Shown in pieces: positions 1 to 19,505 of a stretch of 19,505 bases of DNA; within the stretch, counting starts at the first letter, position 1; each line of letters opens with the position of its first letter. The notes under the pieces are model-generated. The model did no database searches. It had not been told where the DNA came from and was given only the letters and a program-made list of their open reading frames with translations. Origin of the DNA: Verrucomicrobiota bacterium (GTDB taxonomy: Bacteria > Verrucomicrobiota > Verrucomicrobiia > Limisphaerales > CANJXF01); the NCBI GenBank assembly GCA_038214755.1, contig JBBQRQ010000095.1, positions 1-19,505 of the forward strand. Direction: 5' to 3'. Position numbers and translations under genes: made by a program.

Positions 1-42
1 GAGCAGTGATTGAGGCAGTTTGTGGCGGCGGATTTTAGGCAT
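1..42 (-). CDS. 5' end of a small protein (MPKIRRHKLPQSLL...), probable toxin partner of 35..256; runs off the window
   Basis: Manual translation; the ATG at 42 overlaps the last codons of the upstream ORF, a coupling typical of TA pairs. Confidence 0.55.
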   Translation of the reverse strand, partial: MPKIRRHKLPQSLL

Positions 43-256
43 GAGACTGGTCGCCGTAGAAACCGCGCACGATCTCTTCTTGCAGCCGATCCGCCTCTTG
101 CGGGTCTTTTGCTTCGACCATTCGTTTGGCTAACTGACCCAATTCTTCTGGCGTAAGCATGCGGCTTTCTCCCGCCTGCCGGGCAAACTTGATTACCCTC
201 GTCTGTTCATCTTGCGGTAAGCGTTTTATCTCTTCGATGATTTCAACCGCTGTCAT
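35..256 (-). CDS. small putative antitoxin (addiction-module-like)
   Basis: 73 aa; N-terminus MTAVEIIEEIKRLPQDEQTRV resembles 1927..2124 (MSAHEIIEQIKGLPSSERAQV); overlaps the downstream gene; promoter directly upstream. Confidence 0.65.
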   Translation of the reverse strand: MTAVEIIEEIKRLPQDEQTRVIKFARQAGESRMLTPEELGQLAKRMVEAKDPQEADRLQEEIVRGFYGDQSHA

Positions 257-262
257 GCAACC

Positions 263-291
263 AGATTACCTATTCCAACGTCGGCGCGCAA
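263..291 (-). promoter_or_regulatory. sigma70-type promoter, probably leaderless
   Basis: TTGCGC-17 bp-TAATCT, then 6 nt to the ATG at 256; no Shine-Dalgarno. Confidence 0.6.
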
Positions 292-384
292 GCGGTTCAA
301 TGGTTGTCTTTTTTCCGCGCAACGTTTTCGTTCATGCAGAACCTGGCCGTCTCGAAGTCAAAATGGCTTTGAAGGAAAAAAATT

Positions 385-563
385 GACTGACAGCCACCGA
401 CGAAATTGTTTCGCCCTCCACATAAAAGGCAGCTCGCAAATCCTGCGCGAGATCCACCGCGTAGATCGTGCGTCCGTCGTGGGCGGAGAGCCGGTGGATT
501 TTGTGCGCCCGGAGACGTGGATCGAAAGAGTTCTGCTTGAAAATCGGAAAGGCTCGCCGCGCC
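385..563 (-). pseudogene. degenerate RelE/ParE-like toxin fragment (central and C-terminal part)
   Basis: An unlisted frame reads ARRAFPIFKQNSFDPRLRAHKIHRLSAHDGRTIYAVDLAQDLRAAFYVEGETISSVAV, homologous to ARQAWKIFKENPFDPRLRSHKI of 1790..1930; in-frame TGA just upstream and no start codon. Confidence 0.7.
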
Positions 564-618
564 AGAGGTCACCGTTGTTCATTTCATATTGTGATTCGTG
601 TGACCTTTTGCTCGAATC

Positions 619-957
619 ATGCCAATGAAACTTCCCCACGGCGAACGGGCTGACCTCGGCACAAAGCTGGAGGATTACTCGCTCAACCCGGTGCATCGGG
701 ATGGACGGCATAAGGCGCGGGTTTTCGCCTCCGTTCTTGGAATCACGGTCGATAATCATCAGAAGCTGCGGGATGCGTTGCTTCATTTCGCCGCAACGTC
801 GGATGCCGCCGAAGCCAGAGGCGATAATGGGTTCGGAAATGTTTTCGTGCTGCGCTTTCCACTGGCAACCGAAACGAACACAGCCACCGTGATGAGCGTC
901 TGGATTATTCGTCATGGAGAGGACTTCCCACGGCTCACAAGTTGTTATATTGTTTGA
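619..957 (+). CDS. DUF6883-like protein (putative toxin); start possibly at 625
   Basis: KLEDYSLNPVHRDGRHKARVF...SVWII...PRLTSCY family pattern; followed by a DUF4926-like gene. Confidence 0.75.
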   Translation: MPMKLPHGERADLGTKLEDYSLNPVHRDGRHKARVFASVLGITVDNHQKLRDALLHFAATSDAAEARGDNGFGNVFVLRFPLATETNTATVMSVWIIRHGEDFPRLTSCYIV

Positions 958-960
958 CCT

Positions 961-1203
961 ATGAACGCCGAAATTCATCTGCACGATGTGGTGGTGTTGA
1001 CCGAAGATGTGCCGACAAAGCACTTTGAATCCGGTCGCGCGCTTTGGCTGCGCCGTGGCCAGGTCGGCACCGTTGTGATGACTTATGACGGCACGGCGTT
1101 TGAAGTCGAATTTTCCGGCAAAGACGGACGAGCCTATGCGCTGCTTCCGGTGGCTGCGAAAAAGCTGATTGTCCTCCATGAAGAGCCGGAACTCGCGATG
1201 TAG
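961..1203 (+). CDS. DUF4926 domain protein
   Basis: LHDVVVLTEDV...LRRGQVGTVV...AFEVEFS...GRAYAL signature; typical partner of DUF6883. Confidence 0.85.
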   Translation: MNAEIHLHDVVVLTEDVPTKHFESGRALWLRRGQVGTVVMTYDGTAFEVEFSGKDGRAYALLPVAAKKLIVLHEEPELAM

Positions 1204-1315
1204 TTGGCGGCAAAGAGTATTGATATTTTTCTCGTTTTAATCAGCCATTTCGCCGGGATAACGAAAGTCCTTTCGCCAGACTTCTGCGTTCTCGGAGTTC
1301 GCAGCGGAGATAAAG

Positions 1316-1344
1316 TTGACCGACATTGGAAACCAATTTAATCT
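1316..1344 (+). promoter_or_regulatory. leaderless sigma70-type promoter of hicBA with a palindrome in the spacer
   Basis: TTGACC-17 bp-TAATCT, 6 nt before ATG 1351; inverted repeat ATTGG-aaa-CCAAT at 1325-1337. Confidence 0.65.
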
Positions 1345-1350
1345 TTTGCC

Positions 1351-1563
1351 ATGAAATTCCGCGTGATGATCGAGCCGGATGAAGATGGTGTTTTTGTGGC
1401 AGAGTGCCCGTCACTGCCGGGCTGCATTTCGCAAGGCCAGACTCGGGAAGAAGCGCTGACCAACATCAAGGATGCCATCGCCGGTTATCTCGTCAGCCTC
1501 AAAAAGCACAATGAGCCGGTGCCTTTGCCGATCACGGAAGAAGTGGTTGAAATCCCGGCATGA
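1351..1563 (+). CDS. hicB: HicB family antitoxin (short, no DNA-binding extension)
   Basis: EPDEDGVFVAECPSLPGCISQGQTREEALTNIKDAI signature. Confidence 0.92.
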   Translation: MKFRVMIEPDEDGVFVAECPSLPGCISQGQTREEALTNIKDAIAGYLVSLKKHNEPVPLPITEEVVEIPA

Positions 1564-1778
1564 GCAAGCTGCCCGTTTGTTCCGGTGTCGATGCGGTCAA
1601 AGCGTTCCGCTAACTGGGTCACGAATTTGATCACCAGACTGGTAGCCACATTATTCTTCGGCATCCATCCATGCGGCGCCTGACCGTTCCCAATCATCGA
1701 GAATTGGCCAAAGGCACTTTGCGCGCACTGATCCGTGACGCGGGAATCACAAAAGAGCAGTTCAGCGAATTGCTTTGA
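1560..1778 (+). pseudogene. hicA: HicA family toxin with a premature stop (TAA at 1611-1613)
   Basis: ATGA overlap with hicB; translation MSKLPVCSGVDAVKAFR*LGHEFDHQTGSHIILRHPSMRRLTVPNHRELAKGTLRALIRDAGITKEQFSELL with the GSH and TVPxH motifs. Confidence 0.88.
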
Positions 1779-1789
1779 AAGAGCCGTTC

Positions 1790-1930
1790 GATTTTGTGTG
1801 ACCGCAAACGAGGATCAAAAGGGTTTTCCTTGAAAATTTTCCAAGCTTGGCGCGCGGATTCTTTTTGTGCGGGAGAAAGGCGGTAGAAACTCGTCCAGAA
1901 TCGTTCAACGGCGCGGTAGCGATATTTCAT
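1790..1930 (-). pseudogene. RelE/ParE-like toxin, 3'-truncated after ...RSHKI (the ORF reads on antisense into hicA to 1694)
   Basis: MKYRYRAVERFWTSFYRLSPAQKESARQAWKIFKENPFDPRLRSHKI; ATGA overlap with 1927..2124; lacks the C-terminal strands seen in the 385..563 homolog. Confidence 0.7.
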
Positions 1931-2124
1931 CGCAGATGTGGCGGGGGCGTTTCAAACAAAGCCGTTTCCATCTCGACCAACCGCCCGGCCTCCAAATCTT
2001 TCATGGCATCTTTGAATTCGTCGGGAATCCAGGAATTGTCGGACTCGACCACGAACCGGGTGACTTGCGCCCGTTCGCTGGAAGGCAGTCCTTTGATTTG
2101 TTCGATGATTTCATGTGCGCTCAT
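1927..2124 (-). CDS. putative antitoxin of the RelE-like toxin
   Basis: 65 aa acidic protein coupled to the toxin; GATAAT 6 nt before the ATG; N-terminus paralogous to 35..256. Confidence 0.7.
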   Translation of the reverse strand: MSAHEIIEQIKGLPSSERAQVTRFVVESDNSWIPDEFKDAMKDLEAGRLVEMETALFETPPPHLR

Positions 2125-7360: not shown

Positions 7361-7488
7361 GGTCGGGACGAGTTCCACCTCGTCCTCATTATTTCAGGGA
7401 AATCGAACTCATTGGGATTTTCCTTCTAAAGTTTCCGAGTTGGGAAGGGCTAACGATTAGTCAGGGGCGCGGTTGAAGGCGTCCTTAC
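7361..7488. repeat. REPIN/MITE-like element: two inverted REP-type palindromes about 65 bp apart
   Basis: GGTCGGGACGAGTTCCACCTCGTCC (7361) is an inverted copy of the degenerate GGGGCGCGGTTGAAGGCGTCCTTAC (to 7488); 7415-7488 also matches 12600-12674. Confidence 0.7.
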
Positions 7489-12575: not shown

Positions 12576-12675
12576 GGGAAAACGCATCCCTACGCGTTCG
12601 GATTTTCCTTCTGACATTTTCGGATTTGGGGATGCGCTCAGATTAGTCAGGGACGCGGTGGAACGCGTCCCTACC
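12576..12675. repeat. second, partial copy of the REP/MITE-like element
   Basis: GGATTTTCCTTCT...GATTAGTCAGGGACGCGGTGGAACGCGTCCCTACC matches 7415-7488; hairpin GGGACGCG-gtggaa-CGCGTCCC. Confidence 0.75.
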
Positions 12676-12732
12676 ACGCGCCAGATATCTCGGTAGAGAC
12701 GAGTGTCAATTTTCTTGATGTGACTTCTCACA

Positions 12733-13017
12733 TCACGCTTTGACTAATTCAATTTTAAGATTCTTGCCCAAGGCGCGCGCCACTCGATCCAAGGTCGAAA
12801 GCCGGACATCTTCGGCGTGATTTTCCAGACGCGAGATGGCGGATTTTTTTGTGTTGGTGCGTTGCGCTAAATCTTCCTGCGTAATGCCCGCTTCTTCGCG
12901 GGCTTGTCGCAAGAGGACGCCGACTTTGAATTCCTGATAACCGCTCTCGAAATTTTCCGCGAACTTTGCATCGGCGCGTTTCCTTCGGTTAATGTATTTT
13001 TCCAAATCGTCTTTCAT
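12733..13017 (-). CDS. higA: XRE-family HTH antitoxin (HigA-like)
   Basis: [31 protein letters not shown]...RLSTL; ATGA overlap with the upstream toxin remnant. Confidence 0.85.
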
Positions 13018-13222
13018 CTTTTTGCCTTTCGGTTGAGGTAATCATGTTTTCGCTGTTCGGCAATTTCAATTTCGCGCACGGGCGTTTTCTGCGTCTTCTT
13101 TGCAAATCCGTTCGTCAGATAATAAGGTTTCCTGCATCCCAAAATCCCAGCAACCGAAAAGCATCGCTGCCAAATTCAGCCCGCACTTCCCAAAGTTCGT
13201 CGGGGCCTTCGAGCTTCTTGAA
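13014..13222 (-). pseudogene. higB: HigB/Gp49 (DUF891)-like toxin remnant, 5'-truncated and frameshifted
   Basis: [35 protein letters not shown], then a 1-nt shift near 13117 to [34 protein letters not shown]. Confidence 0.85.
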
Positions 13223-13290
13223 CTCCTCAAAATCCACCAACTTCTTGATCTGCACCAGAAACCAGCGGTCGATTTTCGTGAGGTTGAAAA
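13223..13290 (-). pseudogene. carB: carB fragment, copy 1 (about 68 bp)
   Basis: [22 protein letters not shown], matching the CPS large-subunit oligomerisation-domain motif; 6 mismatches in 65 nt to 16596-16660. Confidence 0.8.
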
Positions 13291-13427
13291 CTACGCCCTC
13301 GTGTGACTGAGATTTTCGCGGGGGGAACACAGTAAAATCGCGCAGGGCTTGACACTCTCCCGCGAAGCGGTTTTTCTGGCGTCAGAGAATTGATGACAAC
13401 CGCCGTGCTGGCATTGGTCCGCCTCCT

Positions 13428-14771
13428 ATGAAAATACTGCTTTCTGCTAACGCCTGCGATCCCTACATGGGTTCGGAAAGTTACTTTGGATGGGCGGCGA
13501 TAAAATGTCTTTCCCAGGATCACGAGATATTTGTCATAACCAGCAGCCGTAATCGCGACAGTCTGGCCAAAGCGAAGGCGGAAGGGTTGGTTCCTCCCAA
13601 TGTTCAATTTTTTTACGCCGGTAAATTCGCTGAGTGGCATCCGAACCGTCTGTTGGCAAGAATCCAAAACTGGAAGGAATACATCCATTTCTCCAAGGAT
13701 TCGCTCGCGGTCTCCATAAGACTGCACCAAGTGGAAAAATTTGATCTCGTTCAGCATGTCACTATTGCGACTTGGCGGGTGGCCTCGCCGCTATGGCAAT
13801 TGGGCATTCCCTTTATTTTTGGCCCCATCGGCGGGAACGAAAAATTTCCGCTTCGAATTTTTCCGGTTTTAAGTCCGGCCGGTGCCGCCTTTGAGCTGTT
13901 ACGGAAGACATCCAATGTTATTTCCAGGTTTTCACCCAGCGTCCGCCGGGGTATTTGCGAGGCCACCCACATTTTCGCGGGCACCACAGAAACGGAACAG
14001 TTGGTGAGAGCTTTGCGCTGTTCCGGCAAAGGTATTTCGCGATTGCTACCGGGATTTTATTCGGCGGCGAAGGTGGCAACCTTGGCCCGCCTGGCCCCGA
14101 ATAAAAAGCTGGACGGGCCGCTCCGTCTCTTTGCCTCGGGCAATCTTGGGGGGCACAAAGGTCTGGGGCTGGCATTGCAAGCCTTGGCCAGTGTAAAAAA
14201 AAGCGGGGTGGATTTTCGCTACCATCTGGGCGCAAGCGGGCCGGAAATCCCGCATTTGAAAAAACTGGTCGCCAGACTGGGCTTGAACCGGGAAGTTCTT
14301 TTTGGCGGAGCCATGAGCAGCGAGGATTATCAGCGGGAATTGGGCAACACCCATGTTTACCTCCTCCCCAGCATGCGGGAAAGCGTCGGCCTGACCATGA
14401 TGGAAGCCATGCTGGCCGGGTGTGTGCCGGTGGTGGCCGACTGCGGCGGGCCAAACTTTATTGTCACGGAGGATTGTGGTTATAAAATTGCCGTTTCCAC
14501 ACCGGAGCGAATGATTGAAGAGATGGCGAATATCATTGTGGCAATTGATCGCGACCGGAAAATCATTTCAGAAAAAGGGGCGGCATCCACCAAAAGAATT
14601 GCCACCCATTTTACAGAGGAAAATTACCGCCAGACCGTCAATGCAGTTTACACATCAGTGACCAACCGCGACAGCGAACTTGAGAGAAACGTTTGCCAGT
14701 CTGCCCCCGTAAAAACGCCAGTCCAAGTGCTTGCTGCCCGCCTCCACCCACGAACCAGCGATTCTCCGTGA
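13428..14771 (+). CDS. glycosyltransferase family 4
   Basis: MKILLSANACDPYMGSE N-terminus; PFIFGPIGG; LPSMRESVGLTMMEAMLAGCVPVV (EX7E). Confidence 0.92.
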   Translation: MKILLSANACDPYMGSESYFGWAAIKCLSQDHEIFVITSSRNRDSLAKAKAEGLVPPNVQFFYAGKFAEWHPNRLLARIQNWKEYIHFSKDSLAVSIRLHQVEKFDLVQHVTIATWRVASPLWQLGIPFIFGPIGGNEKFPLRIFPVLSPAGAAFELLRKTSNVISRFSPSVRRGICEATHIFAGTTETEQLVRALRCSGKGISRLLPGFYSAAKVATLARLAPNKKLDGPLRLFASGNLGGHKGLGLALQALASVKKSGVDFRYHLGASGPEIPHLKKLVARLGLNREVLFGGAMSSEDYQRELGNTHVYLLPSMRESVGLTMMEAMLAGCVPVVADCGGPNFIVTEDCGYKIAVSTPERMIEEMANIIVAIDRDRKIISEKGAASTKRIATHFTEENYRQTVNAVYTSVTNRDSELERNVCQSAPVKTPVQVLAARLHPRTSDSP

Positions 14772-14818
14772 ACTGTGGAGTGCAAAAAAAAACGACTTCC
14801 TATCAATTTAATATTTCA

Positions 14819-15358
14819 ATGAAAAGAATACTTAATGTCGGATGCGGAAAGGAAACTTACGGAACGGACTTTGTCGATATGTATCCTAGTAGAAAGAATG
14901 TGGTCCAATGTGATATGGAAAAAGGACTTCCTTTTGAAAACAACACCTTTGACGAGGTATATAGCCACTGTCTTTTTGAACACCTCAAAAATCCTTTCAA
15001 TATGGTAATGGAAATGAAAAGAGTTACGAAAGAAGGAGGAAAAGTAAGAGTGATAACAGACAACGGAAGTTATTGGGCGTTCGGACGTAACCATGGGGCG
15101 CACACAGGAGGATACGAAAAAGTGGAATATCCCGATGACAGGCACTATTGTTTTTTTACAAAGACACACCTTATAAATCATTTTACAAAAGCAGGGCTTG
15201 ATGTAGAAGAAGTGAAATTTGTAGAATACTTTTCAACATCCTGGATAAAAAGTTCTATCTGTTTTATAGTTCAGAATATCTTAAAGATTACTCCTTTTCG
15301 GAATATGGCCTATGCTAGAATAGAAATCGTAGGGGTTAACAAATATAAAGGGGTCTGA
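14819..15358 (+). CDS. class I SAM-dependent methyltransferase (Methyltransf_11-like), AT-rich
   Basis: MKRILNVGCG, LPFENNTFDEVYSHCLFEHL, KRVTKEGG; likely start ATG 14819. Confidence 0.85.
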   Translation: MKRILNVGCGKETYGTDFVDMYPSRKNVVQCDMEKGLPFENNTFDEVYSHCLFEHLKNPFNMVMEMKRVTKEGGKVRVITDNGSYWAFGRNHGAHTGGYEKVEYPDDRHYCFFTKTHLINHFTKAGLDVEEVKFVEYFSTSWIKSSICFIVQNILKITPFRNMAYARIEIVGVNKYKGV

Positions 15359-15636
15359 ATGGCCATTAGCTAGAGCCTGTCTCCGGGGGAGAAGGGCTTG
15401 TCGTTATTGATGTCGACGGCGGGTTGGTCGTCTGGCAAAAGCGGCGATAGGACAGGCCAAATTTTTCACTCCGGGTAATGGCTGCGGTGCGGCAACTCTT
15501 CACGAGCGACGCGTTTTCCGCACCGTTTGTCGCCGGTTCAATCTTGTGATTGGGTTACAACCGGTTCCGTCAGACGGGCCGTGGGTTTGGGCACGTCAAT
15601 TTAAACGCGTCGTTTCGGGTTTGCCGCGTGTAGATA

Positions 15637-15752
15637 AAAAGAATCACCCGGCATTTTGCGGAAGAAATTACCGTCAGACCATCAATGCAGTTTACCCATC
15701 AGTGACAAACCGCGACGGCCAACTTAAACAATCCATTTACCAATGCGCTTAA
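15637..15752 (+). pseudogene. duplicated 3' segment of the GT4 gene
   Basis: 15665-15725 matches 14621-14681 with 6 mismatches in 61 nt (NYRQTINAVYPSVTNRD vs NYRQTVNAVYTSVTNRD); its stop lies inside the start of the FkbM gene. Confidence 0.8.
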
Positions 15753-16552
15753 ACACCCCCGGAAAACTCAACAGATTTGGCAAGAAGGTGACGCCGTTTC
15801 TCAGTCATCTGGTTGCCAGTGCGCGGGCCACCCGCTTTCTGGAGTTGGGAAGTTCATATCTGAATTGTGTTATTGGTAAAGGCGGGGGAAGCAACTGGCA
15901 CATGGGAGAAGAACTCGCGGCGTCCCAGTTTATCCACCGGGAAAATCCGGTTATTATGGATATCGGAGCAAACAAGGGATGGTGGACCCTTGAACTTCGA
16001 CGTCTGATCGGAGAACGGGGGCGATGGATTTTGGTCGATCCAGCGGCAGAATGCTGCGCCATCTTGCGCAAAATAAGCGGAGTTGAAGTCATTGAGGCGG
16101 CTGTCGGCGAGCACGCAGGGAAGGCCAAATTTTATACTCCGGGAGATGGCAGCGGTTTTGCAAGTCTTCACAAGCGGCACGACTCACATGCGCGTATGGA
16201 GCATTTGATTTTAGAGGAACGCGAAGTCGTGGTGACGACCATTGACGACATTCTGGACAGGCGTGGAATTGAAATTGTTGATATGGCCAAGATGGATTTG
16301 GAGGGTCATGAACTTTTTGCTTTGCGCGGAGCTGCCCAATCGTTGAAAACGCATCGCATTCGTGCGTTGACCTTTGAATTTGGCACGTCGAATGTCGATT
16401 CCAGAACTTTCTTCCGCGATTATTTTGATTTGTTGACAGGATATGGATATAAGATTCAACGAATCTATCCAGGCGGCAAAACTGTGCCGGTATTTGAATA
16501 CTATGAAGATTTGGAGTTCTTCAGAGGCGTTACCAACTATATTGCATTCTAA
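15743..16552 (+). CDS. FkbM family methyltransferase
   Basis: [33 protein letters not shown]. Confidence 0.9.
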
Positions 16553-16595
16553 GTCTAAAGAAGTTCGTCCGAATGGGGCGACCCCTTGGTTCTCC

Positions 16596-16801
16596 TTCAA
16601 AATCCACAAGCTCCTTGATCTGCCCCAGAAACCAGCGGTCAATTTTCGTGAGGTTGAAAATCTCGTCGAGGGTGAAGCCGGCGCGGCGGGCGTGGCGGAT
16701 GAAGAAGATGCGCTCGCCCCGCAGGCGCGGGATCAGTTTGTCCCGCAGAGCGGGATCGCGTGGGAGGATGTCGCGGTCGCTATAAACTTCCGTGCCGATG
16801 C
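16596..16801 (-). pseudogene. carB: carB fragment, copy 2 (about 205 bp)
   Basis: [15 protein letters not shown]...[40 protein letters not shown]. Confidence 0.85.
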
Positions 16802-16881
16802 TAATCATTTATTCTTTTTTTACATTGCCACGTCTTACAGCCTACATCTATCCTTCTCATCAATCCTTATAATCATTATCT

Positions 16882-18708
16882 ATGATAGCTCTTATTCGCG
16901 TCAGATTCAATAACACGCCTGCTGATAAAGTGTGGAGTGATGCAGTGATGCATAACTGGATGAACCCGGGAATACAATATAGCCTGGCACATTTCTGGAC
17001 CCGCACTTCCTTCTTCCAGGCAGATATGCGATACTTTCTTTTCGCCCCGGTTGCAATGGATGATCCGCGACCCAAAACACCAAAAGACTCCACCGAAAGG
17101 CAATATCTCGTTGCTAAAGTAATTGCAGAGGTCACGAAGGCTTTTTCCCCCGACTGGAAGATCTTTGATCAGTTGCTGATATGCTTTGCTCAACCTACCG
17201 ACCAATTTGGAGGAGGTGAACACAAGGTGCCCATTGCTGGTGGTGAAAAAACAATCCCGGCAGCAGTGGTTGATGTTGCAAGCCCGTTCAGCAATATATG
17301 CCAGGAGGTGGGTCATACATTTTTACTTGACCATGAGATTGACGGTGCAGGCAATGAATATATGAGCCCTTACTCATCCATGAGCAGTGAATTATACGGC
17401 GGCGCACAATCCTCTTTTGAGCGTGAAAAAGTTCCTGCGCTGCCCGTAGGTTTTCCACGTCCTGCCCCTGAAATAACTGCAGTGGATACCGATGACATGC
17501 AACGTGTGATAGGTCCTTACATAACACCCGTGCAATTTTACCTGAAAGCAATGGGAATTTTTATTGATGACAGAACTGTCTATCAGGTGCCCGGCTCTTT
17601 TACCACCGCACCTCATTCCTTTCGCCTGGCAGCCCTCGACAAAGGAATTGACTTATGGCCGGCGCGCCATGTAGTACTGGCCGTTCTTCCACCTGCCGTT
17701 CCCAATGGGGATACGTATTTTCTAGAATTGCGCAGGAATGTTAGCTATGATGCGGGGCTAACCTCCGATGGCGCTAACAGTGCTCCTGTAGCCTTGGTGA
17801 TTCATGCTGCTGATATCTCTTCCAAAGCCAAAAGGGTTCGTTATGTTAATCGTGTTGCTTTAGTTGCTTCACCCGGTGATCGTGACTATCATTGTTTTGC
17901 AGGTCATTTCACAGTGCGGCTCAATAATTTTGCAGAAGATTTTTCATCATGCAGTGTCACTGTCGGCGGCGACGATTTTTGGAAATATTTCGGAGTGAAT
18001 TTCGATACCATTCTAACAAATGAAATACCGGGCGGAGAAAGCGAATGGAATTTCGGAAAGGTTTCTCCTTGTTTCATGTTTCCTGTTTCTATTTATACTT
18101 ATAAATATCATTACATCAGCAGCGAGGTAGTGATGGTTGCCTCATCTTTTGGATATGAAACGCCGGCCTACCAATGGTTTTTAAATGACCAGCCTCTTAA
18201 TCCGTCGGATGCACAAATTACCATAAGGTCAAAAGTGAGGGTGCCTCACAACGGTGAATTAAGTGAGCTTCATGATGAAGATGTGACCGTACAATATAGG
18301 ATTACACAAAACAAACTTAACCTGACATTCAATGAACTCTTTTCAGGCATTTATGCCACTGTGAAAGTTATAGTAAATGAAAGCTCCGGTGAAGTTCTCC
18401 AAAATTTTTATCCGGAACGGACAGTATGGACGAGCATTTCAGTAAATAATGTGGAGATCGAATGGGACCAGGCGTATAAAGATGCGCAGAATGCATGTGA
18501 GAAAAGGTTGGATGAAATCAATGATCATTATGCTAAAAGTCACCCGCATATACCCCAACGCAATCCGGAGCCTGACTGGGGTATATCCACCATTAACCTG
18601 ATAAACGAACTTGTACAGTCTAACCCTGCTGCGGCAAATGCAGCCATTAATGAAGTGGCGAGGTTAGGAAATATCAGTAAGCTGGAAGTAATAAAGAAAC
18701 TTCGATAA
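16882..18708 (+). CDS. low-GC metzincin-like (M6/M11-like) metallopeptidase homolog with a QExxHxxxxxH motif
   Basis: 608 aa; ICQEVGHTFLLDH, a Met-turn-like YMSPYSSMS and YFLELRRNVSYDAGL. Confidence 0.6.
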   Translation: MIALIRVRFNNTPADKVWSDAVMHNWMNPGIQYSLAHFWTRTSFFQADMRYFLFAPVAMDDPRPKTPKDSTERQYLVAKVIAEVTKAFSPDWKIFDQLLICFAQPTDQFGGGEHKVPIAGGEKTIPAAVVDVASPFSNICQEVGHTFLLDHEIDGAGNEYMSPYSSMSSELYGGAQSSFEREKVPALPVGFPRPAPEITAVDTDDMQRVIGPYITPVQFYLKAMGIFIDDRTVYQVPGSFTTAPHSFRLAALDKGIDLWPARHVVLAVLPPAVPNGDTYFLELRRNVSYDAGLTSDGANSAPVALVIHAADISSKAKRVRYVNRVALVASPGDRDYHCFAGHFTVRLNNFAEDFSSCSVTVGGDDFWKYFGVNFDTILTNEIPGGESEWNFGKVSPCFMFPVSIYTYKYHYISSEVVMVASSFGYETPAYQWFLNDQPLNPSDAQITIRSKVRVPHNGELSELHDEDVTVQYRITQNKLNLTFNELFSGIYATVKVIVNESSGEVLQNFYPERTVWTSISVNNVEIEWDQAYKDAQNACEKRLDEINDHYAKSHPHIPQRNPEPDWGISTINLINELVQSNPAAANAAINEVARLGNISKLEVIKKLR

Positions 18709-18754
18709 GCATACGGGAAGCTTTTAAAGGGGGCAGGACTGACGCCATATGCGC

Positions 18755-19186
18755 TCCCGCCAGTTTTTCTTCAAAATCCACAATCTCTTTGATCTGAACC
18801 AAGAACCAACGATCAATCTTGAACAGTTGGAAGATTTCCTCAATCGTGAATCCAGCGCGCGGAGGGCATGGCGGATGAAAAAGATGCGTTCGTCCCGCAG
18901 GCGCGGGATCAGTTTGTCCCGCAGAGCGGGATCGCGCGGGAGGATGTCGCGGTCGCCGTAAACTTCGGTGCCGATGCGCCACGGTTTGCCGTCGCCGCCC
19001 AACCCGCTTCGGCCAATCTCCAGCGAGCGCAAACATTTCTGCAAACTTTCCTTGAGCGTGCGGCCAATGGAAAACGAGGCATAGGGCGAGTTGCCCAATG
19101 CCACACGCGAGTCGGATGTGCTGCCCATTCATTCGCGTGTTGAGCGTCGGAGTTGGCTTGCGGAAATTTCTCGAAAAGGAACCGCG
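18755..19186 (-). pseudogene. carB: carB fragment, copy 3 (about 430 bp; two frameshifts and a palindromic insertion)
   Basis: RFLFEKFPQAN/PTLNTRM-[insert]-IGRTLKESLQKCLRSLEIGRSGLGGDG...[45 protein letters not shown]; matches the CarB RFxFEKF...TxMKSVGExMAIGRxFxE and IDxWFL motifs. Confidence 0.9.
19080..19127. repeat. REP-like palindromic insertion inside carB copy 3
   Basis: GGGCGAGTTGCCC hairpin plus ACACGCGAGTCGGATGTGCTGCCCA sits where the conserved KSVGExMA codons should be. Confidence 0.55.
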
Positions 19187-19319: not shown

Positions 19320-19505
19320 ATGAAACTCCAAACGAGCCTCCTCGCCGTCTTTGCGGCATTCCAAGGAGCGGCCCTTGCGGCCCCAATCCCGTTGACCGGG
19401 ACCATGACTTACAACCAAAACTTCGATTCTCTCGGCACCGCCAGCGTTCCCTGGGTCGATGATTCCACGCTGCCGGGCTGGCTTGCGGAAATCAACGATG
19501 GGACA
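19320..19505 (+). CDS. N-terminus of a secreted protein (partial; runs off the window)
   Basis: MKLQTSLLAVFAAFQGAALAAPIPLTGTMTYNQNFDSLGTASVPWVDDSTLPGW: signal peptide plus a YxQNFDSL...LPGW motif common in verrucomicrobial surface proteins. Confidence 0.7.
   Translation, partial: MKLQTSLLAVFAAFQGAALAAPIPLTGTMTYNQNFDSLGTASVPWVDDSTLPGWLAEINDGT

Follow-up and report, generated by a model that had tools for sequence, protein, structure and literature searches.

Tandem copies of the carB-N 3' end, probably left by integrase-free cassette insertion, in a Verrucomicrobiota genome of the order Limisphaerales

The DNA analysed here is a stretch of 19,505 nt from a Verrucomicrobiota bacterium of the order Limisphaerales (assembly GCA_038214755.1, contig JBBQRQ010000095.1), called the window below, which is one whole contig (C95) of the host genome (G000). 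It contains three pieces of carB, the gene for the large subunit of carbamoyl-phosphate synthetase, all on the minus strand and all matching the CPSase oligomerisation domain PF02787 (Table 1). The pieces are 66, 210 and 435 nt long, above the 30 bp required of a long target duplication (see below), and they are separated by spacers of 2.0 and 3.3 kb, below the 20-kb limit for the corresponding inserts. The spacers are devoid of mobility genes and no integrase was found in the window.

Table 1. Features of the window, with carB-N positions counted backwards from the stop codon
Feature	Positions	Strand	Remarks
Intact HTH (helix-turn-helix) antitoxin	12733-13017	-	pair partner of the broken Gp49 toxin
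Gp49/RelE-type toxin gene remnant	13020-13222	-	PF05973; lacks its 5' part and has a 1-nt deletion, as aligned with G009 and G361
Copy 1	13223-13288	-	relic of carB-N positions -89 to -24; a deletion fuses it to the broken toxin gene
Family 4 glycosyltransferase, cargo	13428-14771	+	PF00534
Class I methyltransferase, cargo	14819-15358	+	PF08241; GC 37%
Diverged relic of the glycosyltransferase 3' end	15637-15742	+	nested scar of the same type; repeat D3, 82-83% to 14592-14698
FkbM-family methyltransferase, cargo	15743-16552	+	PF05050
Copy 2	16592-16801	-	carB-N relic, -226 to -24; end host-like, of class A
608-aa protein gene, cargo between copies 3 and 2	16882-18708	+	no Pfam family; GC 44.9% (genome 52.7%)
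Copy 3	18752-19186	-	relic of the last ~400 nt of carB-N; mosaic, frameshifted pseudogene
Foreign (class B) end of copy 3	18752-18856	-	2 extra nt near 18855, at the joint with the front part
Host-family-like front part of copy 3	18857-19186	-	grouping with G007 + G009, 96/92
Two hairpin patches (TCCCGC-n3/4-GCGGGA)	18893-18931	.	substituted for 12 and 15 coding nt, with a net gain of 3 nt each
Beginning of another gene, upstream of copy 3	19320-19505	+	open reading frame

In this order, carB usually consists of two genes, a front gene, carB-N, of ~500-590 codons, and a back gene, carB-C, located elsewhere. carB-N stops a few codons past the peptide VDFE in 27 of 30 loci of relatives, and the back-half gene begins at domain position 55-58. 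As carB is naturally split in the order, the pieces of the window are gene ends and not internal fragments. The carB-N of the host lies on contig C56 and runs off it at KFPQA, where copy 3 begins, and a search of the assembly did not find the host's own last ~120 carB-N codons. The reads hold an intact end resembling class A (allele classes are defined below) at host-like depth, which, the depths of several contigs having been summed, was not assigned to the host. The large subunit is likewise encoded by two separate genes, CPS.A and CPS.B, in Aquifex aeolicus (PMC6022934); the cited part of that source mentions no array for them, unlike here, where the split yields a conserved gene end in the middle of a domain. 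Both carB halves of the host (carB-N on C56, carB-C on C110) carry short in-frame low-complexity inserts of a heptamer-repeat type, with the peptides LKTENLKLKT and NIEHRTSNTEHR, and an open reading frame (ORF) resembling the transposase of an insertion sequence (IS) lies directly upstream of carB-C (C110:10508-11692).

In the 84 nt that end at VDFE there are 22 differences between copies 2 and 3, distributed as 5, 2 and 15 over codon positions 1, 2 and 3 (binomial p = 0.0009 against an even spread), which corresponds to 11 synonymous and 6 non-synonymous codon differences (proportion of synonymous differences, pS, 0.835; of non-synonymous differences, pN, 0.125). Between copies 1 and 2 there are 6 differences in 65 nt (2/1/3 by codon position), without a significant bias when taken alone (p = 0.32). 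An earlier reading of this DNA made from its letters (the sequence-only reading) had reported exactly these two counts, the excess at third positions and the peptides LDEIFNLTK and IEEIFQLFK. Its proposal that copies 2 and 3 diverged under protein-level selection is supported, and the even spread over codon positions that would have spoken against it is not what we find. Copy 3 reaches ~330 nt past the end it had been given, up to 19186, and spans -397 to -9 relative to the stop codon in the carB-N reference, that of G007, a genome of the same genus.

The intact carB-N genes of the order carry two allele classes, A and B, which differ at 58 sites over the last 400 nt, 48 of them at third positions, and which cut across families. 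Both classes were defined without the copies of the window, and the GC content at third codon positions (GC3) is 0.61-0.69 in class B vs 0.80-0.84. Copy 3 is of class B, an allele carried by intact genes of other families, at all of the last 11 diagnostic sites; copy 2 is of class A at 10 of those 11 sites and copy 1 at 6 of 7. The last 107 nt of copy 3 are 88.8% identical to G027, its best match, which belongs to another family, vs 73.8% to G007. Its front part is 91.5% identical to G007, and the ends of copies 2 and 1 are 94.6% and 93.9% identical to the same genome, tied with genes of other families. In trees, the front part of copy 3 clusters with the G007 and G009 genes (96/92), its end falls inside class B (92/87) and copy 2 groups with G007 (94/95). 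The switch of allele within copy 3 coincides with a 2-nt insertion, and its front part contains a ~59-nt replacement (~19069-19127) and a 1-nt insertion near 19151. Judging from sequence comparisons, only the last ~115 nt of copy 3 appear clearly foreign, and its front part and copies 1 and 2 look host-like.

The sequence-only reading had attributed the pieces to different alleles or donors. This is upheld for the end of copy 3, both by identity and by its place in the trees, and not for the front of copy 3 nor for copies 1 and 2. Its view of the array as a record of serial events gains support from the succession of class B in copy 3 and class A in copy 2. The further idea that each piece arrived whole from a different organism with its cargo is not borne out, copy 3 being a mosaic whose front groups with the host's own family and copies 2 and 1 matching G007. 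Nor can the pieces be described as not decaying: copies 2 and 3 have common derived lesions and copy 3 is frameshifted, which argues that they are decaying now. The pieces of the window thus appear to be mosaics in decay, not whole imports.

The lesions common to copies 2 and 3 lie in a 121-nt block of 93% identity, which includes the two derived hairpin replacements of copy 3, also present in copy 2 at ~16717-16755. The second of these patches matches the core of a repeat that is dispersed elsewhere in the host genome (C31, C94). Both patches recur in one relic of G105, and one of them in a relic of G034. More generally, TCCCGC-n-GCGGGA patches were seen at five different coding sites, in 8 relic copies and in 0 intact genes, the relics outside the window being at loci L044, L048, L059, L066, L077 and L080. 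Another patch motif, in both orientations, was found in 12 relic or contig-edge copies in 7 genomes and in one gene. These patches resemble the microindels described as SPDIR (10.1101/2023.11.22.568220, in the part cited), and they may simply be travelling with the cassette arms.

The junctions between relics and cargo are spanned by read contigs of ~20x, one over 13251-16654 and one over 16731-18923, which do not constitute independent support, as the read run is possibly the source of the window DNA itself. Another read contig (depth 21.5) runs beyond 19505 into a further carB piece, which retains the segment lost from copy 3. Since this contig continues into a carB piece at the depth of the window, the array is longer than the window.

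Such arrays are not restricted to the host. The last 130 residues of carB-N were matched in 228 of 251 genomes of the order, with at least two matches in 65 of the 228 (hand count), some of these 65 being genomes with unsplit paralogues. In a selected set of 86 genomes, half of them chosen for multiple hits, 69 relics were identified in 35 genomes from 21 families, all of them starting within the last 542 nt of the gene and lying in its orientation, and the 53 spacers between relics measure 0.4-4.5 kb. The starts of the relic arms range from -542 to -56 and are clustered rather than fixed, the longest at -508 to -492 and others near -435, -397, -155 and -127, so that no fixed core of an attachment (att) site is apparent. 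In G142, the array is embedded in a contig of 2.3 Mb. Single-copy genomes are numerous in the order, and genomes of the same genus carry other arrays, none of the compared genomes being conspecific. The genes beyond the arrays differ among genomes, and both homology blocks are carB-N pieces. In 103 genomes of other orders of the class, no short tandem relics were present among the matches listed, which were all but 4, the query being less sensitive there. We found no paper on carB-N arrays in this order, in a literature search whose coverage left out most subscription journals. In two loci, carB-N itself is cut short by cargo, ~55 codons before its normal end in L064:1374-4100 (G024:C238) and ~75 codons before it in L222 (G007:C318), which may be a real truncation or a misassembly; in G024, a complete class B end lies after the cut-causing cargo. 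At locus L106, a class B carB-N end is followed by a SMODS nucleotidyltransferase of the CBASS (cyclic-oligonucleotide-based antiphage signalling system) type, in a bin labelled as another phylum and probably misbinned.

The foreign origin of gene ends also extends well beyond the window. When relics are compared with the intact carB-N of their own genome, 28 of 35 are nearer to a foreign gene, 17 of these by at least 5 points, and 25 of the 28 have their best match in another family; 34 of the 69 relics were left out of this comparison (fewer than 45 aligned nt or no intact own gene) and L031 (G018) was dropped because of its fragmented alignment. Pooled differences between relics and own genes are distributed as 186/161/768 over codon positions. 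The relic of G001, for instance, is 79.5% identical to its own gene vs 98.8% to G260, of another family, and G001, G013, G042 and G141 all have class B first, in the gene, and class A in their relics. The intact genes are themselves mosaic. Over the last 500 nt, 86 of 1974 pairs from different families are at least 93% identical, vs 2 of 1974 upstream, the change points lie mostly at -850 to -1000, and the last ~870 nt of carB-N are common across families, with up to 97.6% identity. In a comparison of 25 chosen genomes, enriched for the common allele, the carB-N end is at least 92% identical in 102 of 286 cross-family pairs (maximum 97.6%; synonymous-codon identity up to 0.92; protein 97.7% conserved), vs 0 of 262 for the 5' part of the gene (window -1230 to -900) and 0 of 286 for carB-C (maximum 86%; best 820-nt window 0.77), these pair counts not being frequencies, as the choice of genomes is biased to class A carriers.

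The cargo is shared across families too, together with its junctions. A 645-bp VapBC cassette occurs in five families at 69-86% DNA identity and another, of ~880 bp, in three; cassettes with Mrr, a histidine-kinase-like protein, a methylase or a Y1 transposase are found in two or three families. Each recurring cassette keeps nearly the same right-arm junction into the next relic, whatever the family. Among 96 of the 178 candidate spacer ORFs, which were scanned for families, most of the named ones encode toxin-antitoxin components (PIN/Phd, ParE, PemK, Gp49, MqsA), restriction-modification proteins (methylases, XcyI, Mrr, HNH), AAA_21/RloB or one of a few enzymes; the scan gave no integrase family and three IS-type transposases. 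Restriction-modification cargo is thus found in some relatives, such as XcyI with a methylase in G223. The Gp49/HTH pair next to copy 1 is found in G009, an unpublished genome, between the carB-N stop and a relic (88.8% DNA identity), and in G361, of another family, directly before a relic (75%). These are the only two of 13 homologous loci with an adjacent carB, the 11 others having no carB within 1.5 kb. Similar cargo beside the carB of relatives was thus found for this pair, and neither for the 608-aa gene nor for the glycosyltransferase/methyltransferase pair, whose homologues in G323 and G341 have no carB piece in 12-13 kb. The 608-aa protein has no match in 400 genomes of the order and 67 homologues elsewhere, patchily distributed across phyla, with few named (Burkholderiales, Chitinophagaceae, Chloroflexi, Nocardia), and is likely a recent capture. 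It contains a QEVGH..L.H motif, which may be zinc-protease-like. An internal piece of the FkbM gene also lies upstream of that gene, as a diverged direct repeat (15449-15513 vs 16117-16181).

Comparison of the host genome with itself revealed the same scars at other genes: 45 relics lie behind the 3' ends of 43 genes, with differences distributed as 195/130/546 over codon positions, the gene calls being rough and a few relics possibly being paralogous tails. The anchors include gatA, purB, purC, accC, pyruvate carboxylase, transketolase, glyA, ilvD, ftsK, thrS, lysS, mutS and lipA (in the anchor identification, 4 genes were outside the fetched regions or themselves relics), and the cargo behind them includes HigB, YafQ/RelB, PIN, DUF433/DUF5615, Gp49 and a TIR effector. 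Relics of thrS occur in relatives as well, including on a 1.7-Mb contig of a two-contig genome (G059). Multi-copy relic arrays with toxin-antitoxin cargo were also observed in the host behind thrS (C42:18295-28621) and ilvD (C26:15420-26175).

All these results point to the pieces being copies of the carB-N 3' end, probably left by repeated insertion of cassettes through the homologous recombination of the host, without an integrase, and it is likely that these cassettes, lacking their own integrase, move between families that are only distantly related. A donor would offer the succession gene end, cargo and relic, with both homology arms within one conserved gene. Two ordinary RecA crossovers would then insert this loop behind the carB-N of the recipient or into an existing relic, giving the recipient gene the end of the donor and leaving a hybrid relic downstream. 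New junctions between cargo and arm would arise by rare illegitimate joining and be inherited afterwards as a unit. In the window, the class B end and the 608-aa gene likely entered an already damaged relic of host type, an entry which would have duplicated the ~110 nt common to copies 2 and 3, and copy 1 with the toxin-antitoxin pair is likely the oldest resident end. The likeliest carrier would be natural transformation, in view only of comEC and dprA, both present in the host genome. What we observe are the layout, the mosaics and the junctions common to several families; the crossovers, the carrier and the order of events are our inference.

Several points weigh against this reading. Transfer, insertion and competence are all read from sequence only. 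In approximately unbiased (AU) tests on 100-220 columns, the alternatives were not rejected (p 0.087, 0.09 and 0.13), including a grouping of copy 3 with copy 2 (p 0.09) and of the front part of copy 3 with class B (p 0.13). The term host-like rests on G007 and G009, because the end of the host carB-N is missing from the assembly. In the block common to copies 2 and 3, 6 of 9 differences are at third positions; as such a bias is unexpected under plain duplication of a dead relic, copies 2 and 3 may stem from different lesion-bearing alleles. Elsewhere in the order, 7 of the 35 relics are no further from their own gene than from any foreign one. Ten of the 25 control genomes make up one clade when the tree is built on the 5' part of carB-N, so that the pairs are not independent, yet G031, G136 and G138 carry the common allele and lie outside that clade. 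Homologues of the 608-aa gene have no adjacent carB in any of 7 metagenome loci (flanks up to 3 kb), and the two carB-N genes cut by cargo (G024, G007:C318) are not explained by a model in which the gene is preserved. Finally, the host genome has five tyrosine-recombinase matches elsewhere, which would be able to act in trans.

This last point leads to a different explanation, which we consider unlikely: the array could be a stack of decayed site-specific integrative elements, comparable to cis-mobilizable elements (CIMEs) or to e14 in icd/icdC, which an integrase would have inserted into carB-N, each element supplying a replacement 3' end and the mobility genes being later lost or acting in trans. 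Besides the recombinase matches, the clustered relic starts agree with it, as does class B, which by its GC3 resembles a recoded replacement arm. However, the starts vary at the nucleotide level and follow the cargo, not one core, and the same scars are found at ~40 unrelated genes. The spacers are short and no integrase was detected among the scanned ORFs. No carB-N end was found in the IMG/VR viral contigs, none of 12 pattern hits being confirmed, and the tract exchanged between intact genes extends to -870, past any relic start.

Somewhat less probable again is that circles looped out between two copies re-enter by a single crossover, or that insertion occurs at a break made by a cargo nuclease; the end products would be those of the two-crossover insertion favoured above, with a different intermediate. 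A virus-like cycle of this kind has been proposed for inserts with long target duplication. Single crossovers predict mosaic relics, each cargo is flanked by direct repeats of 66-500 nt, and nucleases or addiction modules are common among the cargoes. Those between copies 1 and 3 of the window are nevertheless not recognisable nucleases, no circle was seen among the contigs, and a circle alone would leave the exchange upstream of -542 unexplained.

An origin by local tandem duplication of the host gene end, followed by decay and later insertion of cargo, is improbable for the array as a whole. It could still hold for copies 1 and 2, which are 91% identical without codon bias, should the host end be nearly identical to them, and it is consistent with the lesions common to copies 2 and 3 and with the 7 relics nearest to their own gene elsewhere. 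For the end of copy 3 it is contradicted by the excess of pS over pN and by the 11 class B sites, and the cargo junctions common to several families speak against it as well. As for an artefact of assembly or binning, with strain chimeras at a very conserved gene end, it is most improbable, even though most genomes are metagenome bins, contigs often break at the carB-N locus and L106 sits in a bin of another phylum, for arrays lie inside the 2.3-Mb contig of G142 and, in the case of thrS, the 1.7-Mb contig of G059, uniform ~20x contigs bridge the junctions of the window, and the hairpin lesions are confined to relics.

The process closest to the insertion we favour is insertion with long target duplication, reportedly introduced by Nobusato et al. 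in 2000. Its inserts are shorter than 20 kb, are bounded by long, variable direct repeats and lack a mobility gene, as here, and in the part cited they are described as restriction-modification genes inserted within species between nearly identical repeats, which may run across a stop codon, and they come mainly from species with natural competence (Furuta et al., 2010; PMC2853133). The arrays described here differ in having cargo of several kinds, insertion events stacked one behind another, repeats that are alleles diverged at synonymous sites, and arms and cargo common to several families; no restriction-modification genes were found in the cassettes of the window, which departs in this from the described inserts. 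In the arrays of type VI secretion system (T6SS) effector-immunity and Rhs 3' ends, additions are serial behind a conserved anchor and old ends are displaced downstream, arrays proposed to be created by homology-facilitated illegitimate recombination and spread by homologous recombination (Kirchberger et al., 2017; PMC5361080, in the part cited). Here, too, foreign 3' ends follow one another behind a 5' part that stays constant. What is displaced in the T6SS and Rhs arrays is a toxin domain that varies. In the present case a gene of core metabolism serves as the anchor, the end that is replaced codes for a nearly unchanged peptide, which is no toxin domain, and the cargo bears no relation to it.

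Three other systems share part of these features, as far as the cited portions of their sources describe them. The prophage e14 of Escherichia coli, like the cassettes, provides an essential gene, icd, with a replacement 3' end and leaves a synonymously diverged C-terminal fragment, icdC, downstream; it is a 15-kb element excised under SOS (PMC13626634), whereas the arrays here have arms of varying length and yielded neither a prophage nor an integrase. Streptococcal CIMEs place tandem cargo without mobility genes at housekeeping 3' ends (fda, rpsI, rpmG, rplL), and they are decayed integrative and conjugative or integrative and mobilizable elements (ICEs/IMEs), with att sites at their boundaries and an integrase to move them (PMC7563491), none of which was found here. 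Neisseria minimal mobile elements exchange cargo by homologous recombination in conserved flanks, and they require two conserved flanking genes and replace the content between them (PMC3787668); here one gene supplies both arms, cassettes accumulate, and the content does not vary between two specific conserved genes. The array of the window works like insertion with long target duplication, the homogenisation of the end of an essential gene across families being the new part.

Some further repeats and genes of the window deserve mention. A repeat resembling repetitive extragenic palindromic (REP) elements lies at 12588-12681 and 7412-7488, with seven copies in the carB-N array region of G007. 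At the left end of the window (1-2124) is a cluster of small toxin-antitoxin-like genes (DUF6883/DUF4926, HicB-like and others), bracketed by a diverged direct repeat (487-562 vs 1780-1855).

Recombination between homologous sequences should become rare long before divergence reaches the level of families. In this order, nevertheless, an essential gene contains a stretch with up to 97.6% identity between families that are ~80% identical in their other carB sequences. One tentative interpretation, to which we give somewhat less than an even chance, is that the last ~870 nt of carB-N act as an order-wide recombination port, the cassettes carrying the port allele and the relics serving as safe landing pads. 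If this were true, the essential gene of recipients would be converted to the common allele, lowering the divergence barrier for the next cassette, and the system would be an integrase-free, self-reinforcing analogue of the integron, by which defence and addiction genes would move from one family to another, A and B being synonymous port alleles in competition. The release and reinfection proposed for long target duplication was put forward without data, the source itself stating that there is no experimental evidence for it (PMC2853133, in the part cited). If cassettes drive the sharing, our results would provide comparative evidence for that step, together with a defined, testable substrate. 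They also carry a warning, as trees built on the 3' parts of core genes of this order can be misleading and assemblies can break there, and they make relic arrays an easy pointer to undiscovered defence genes.

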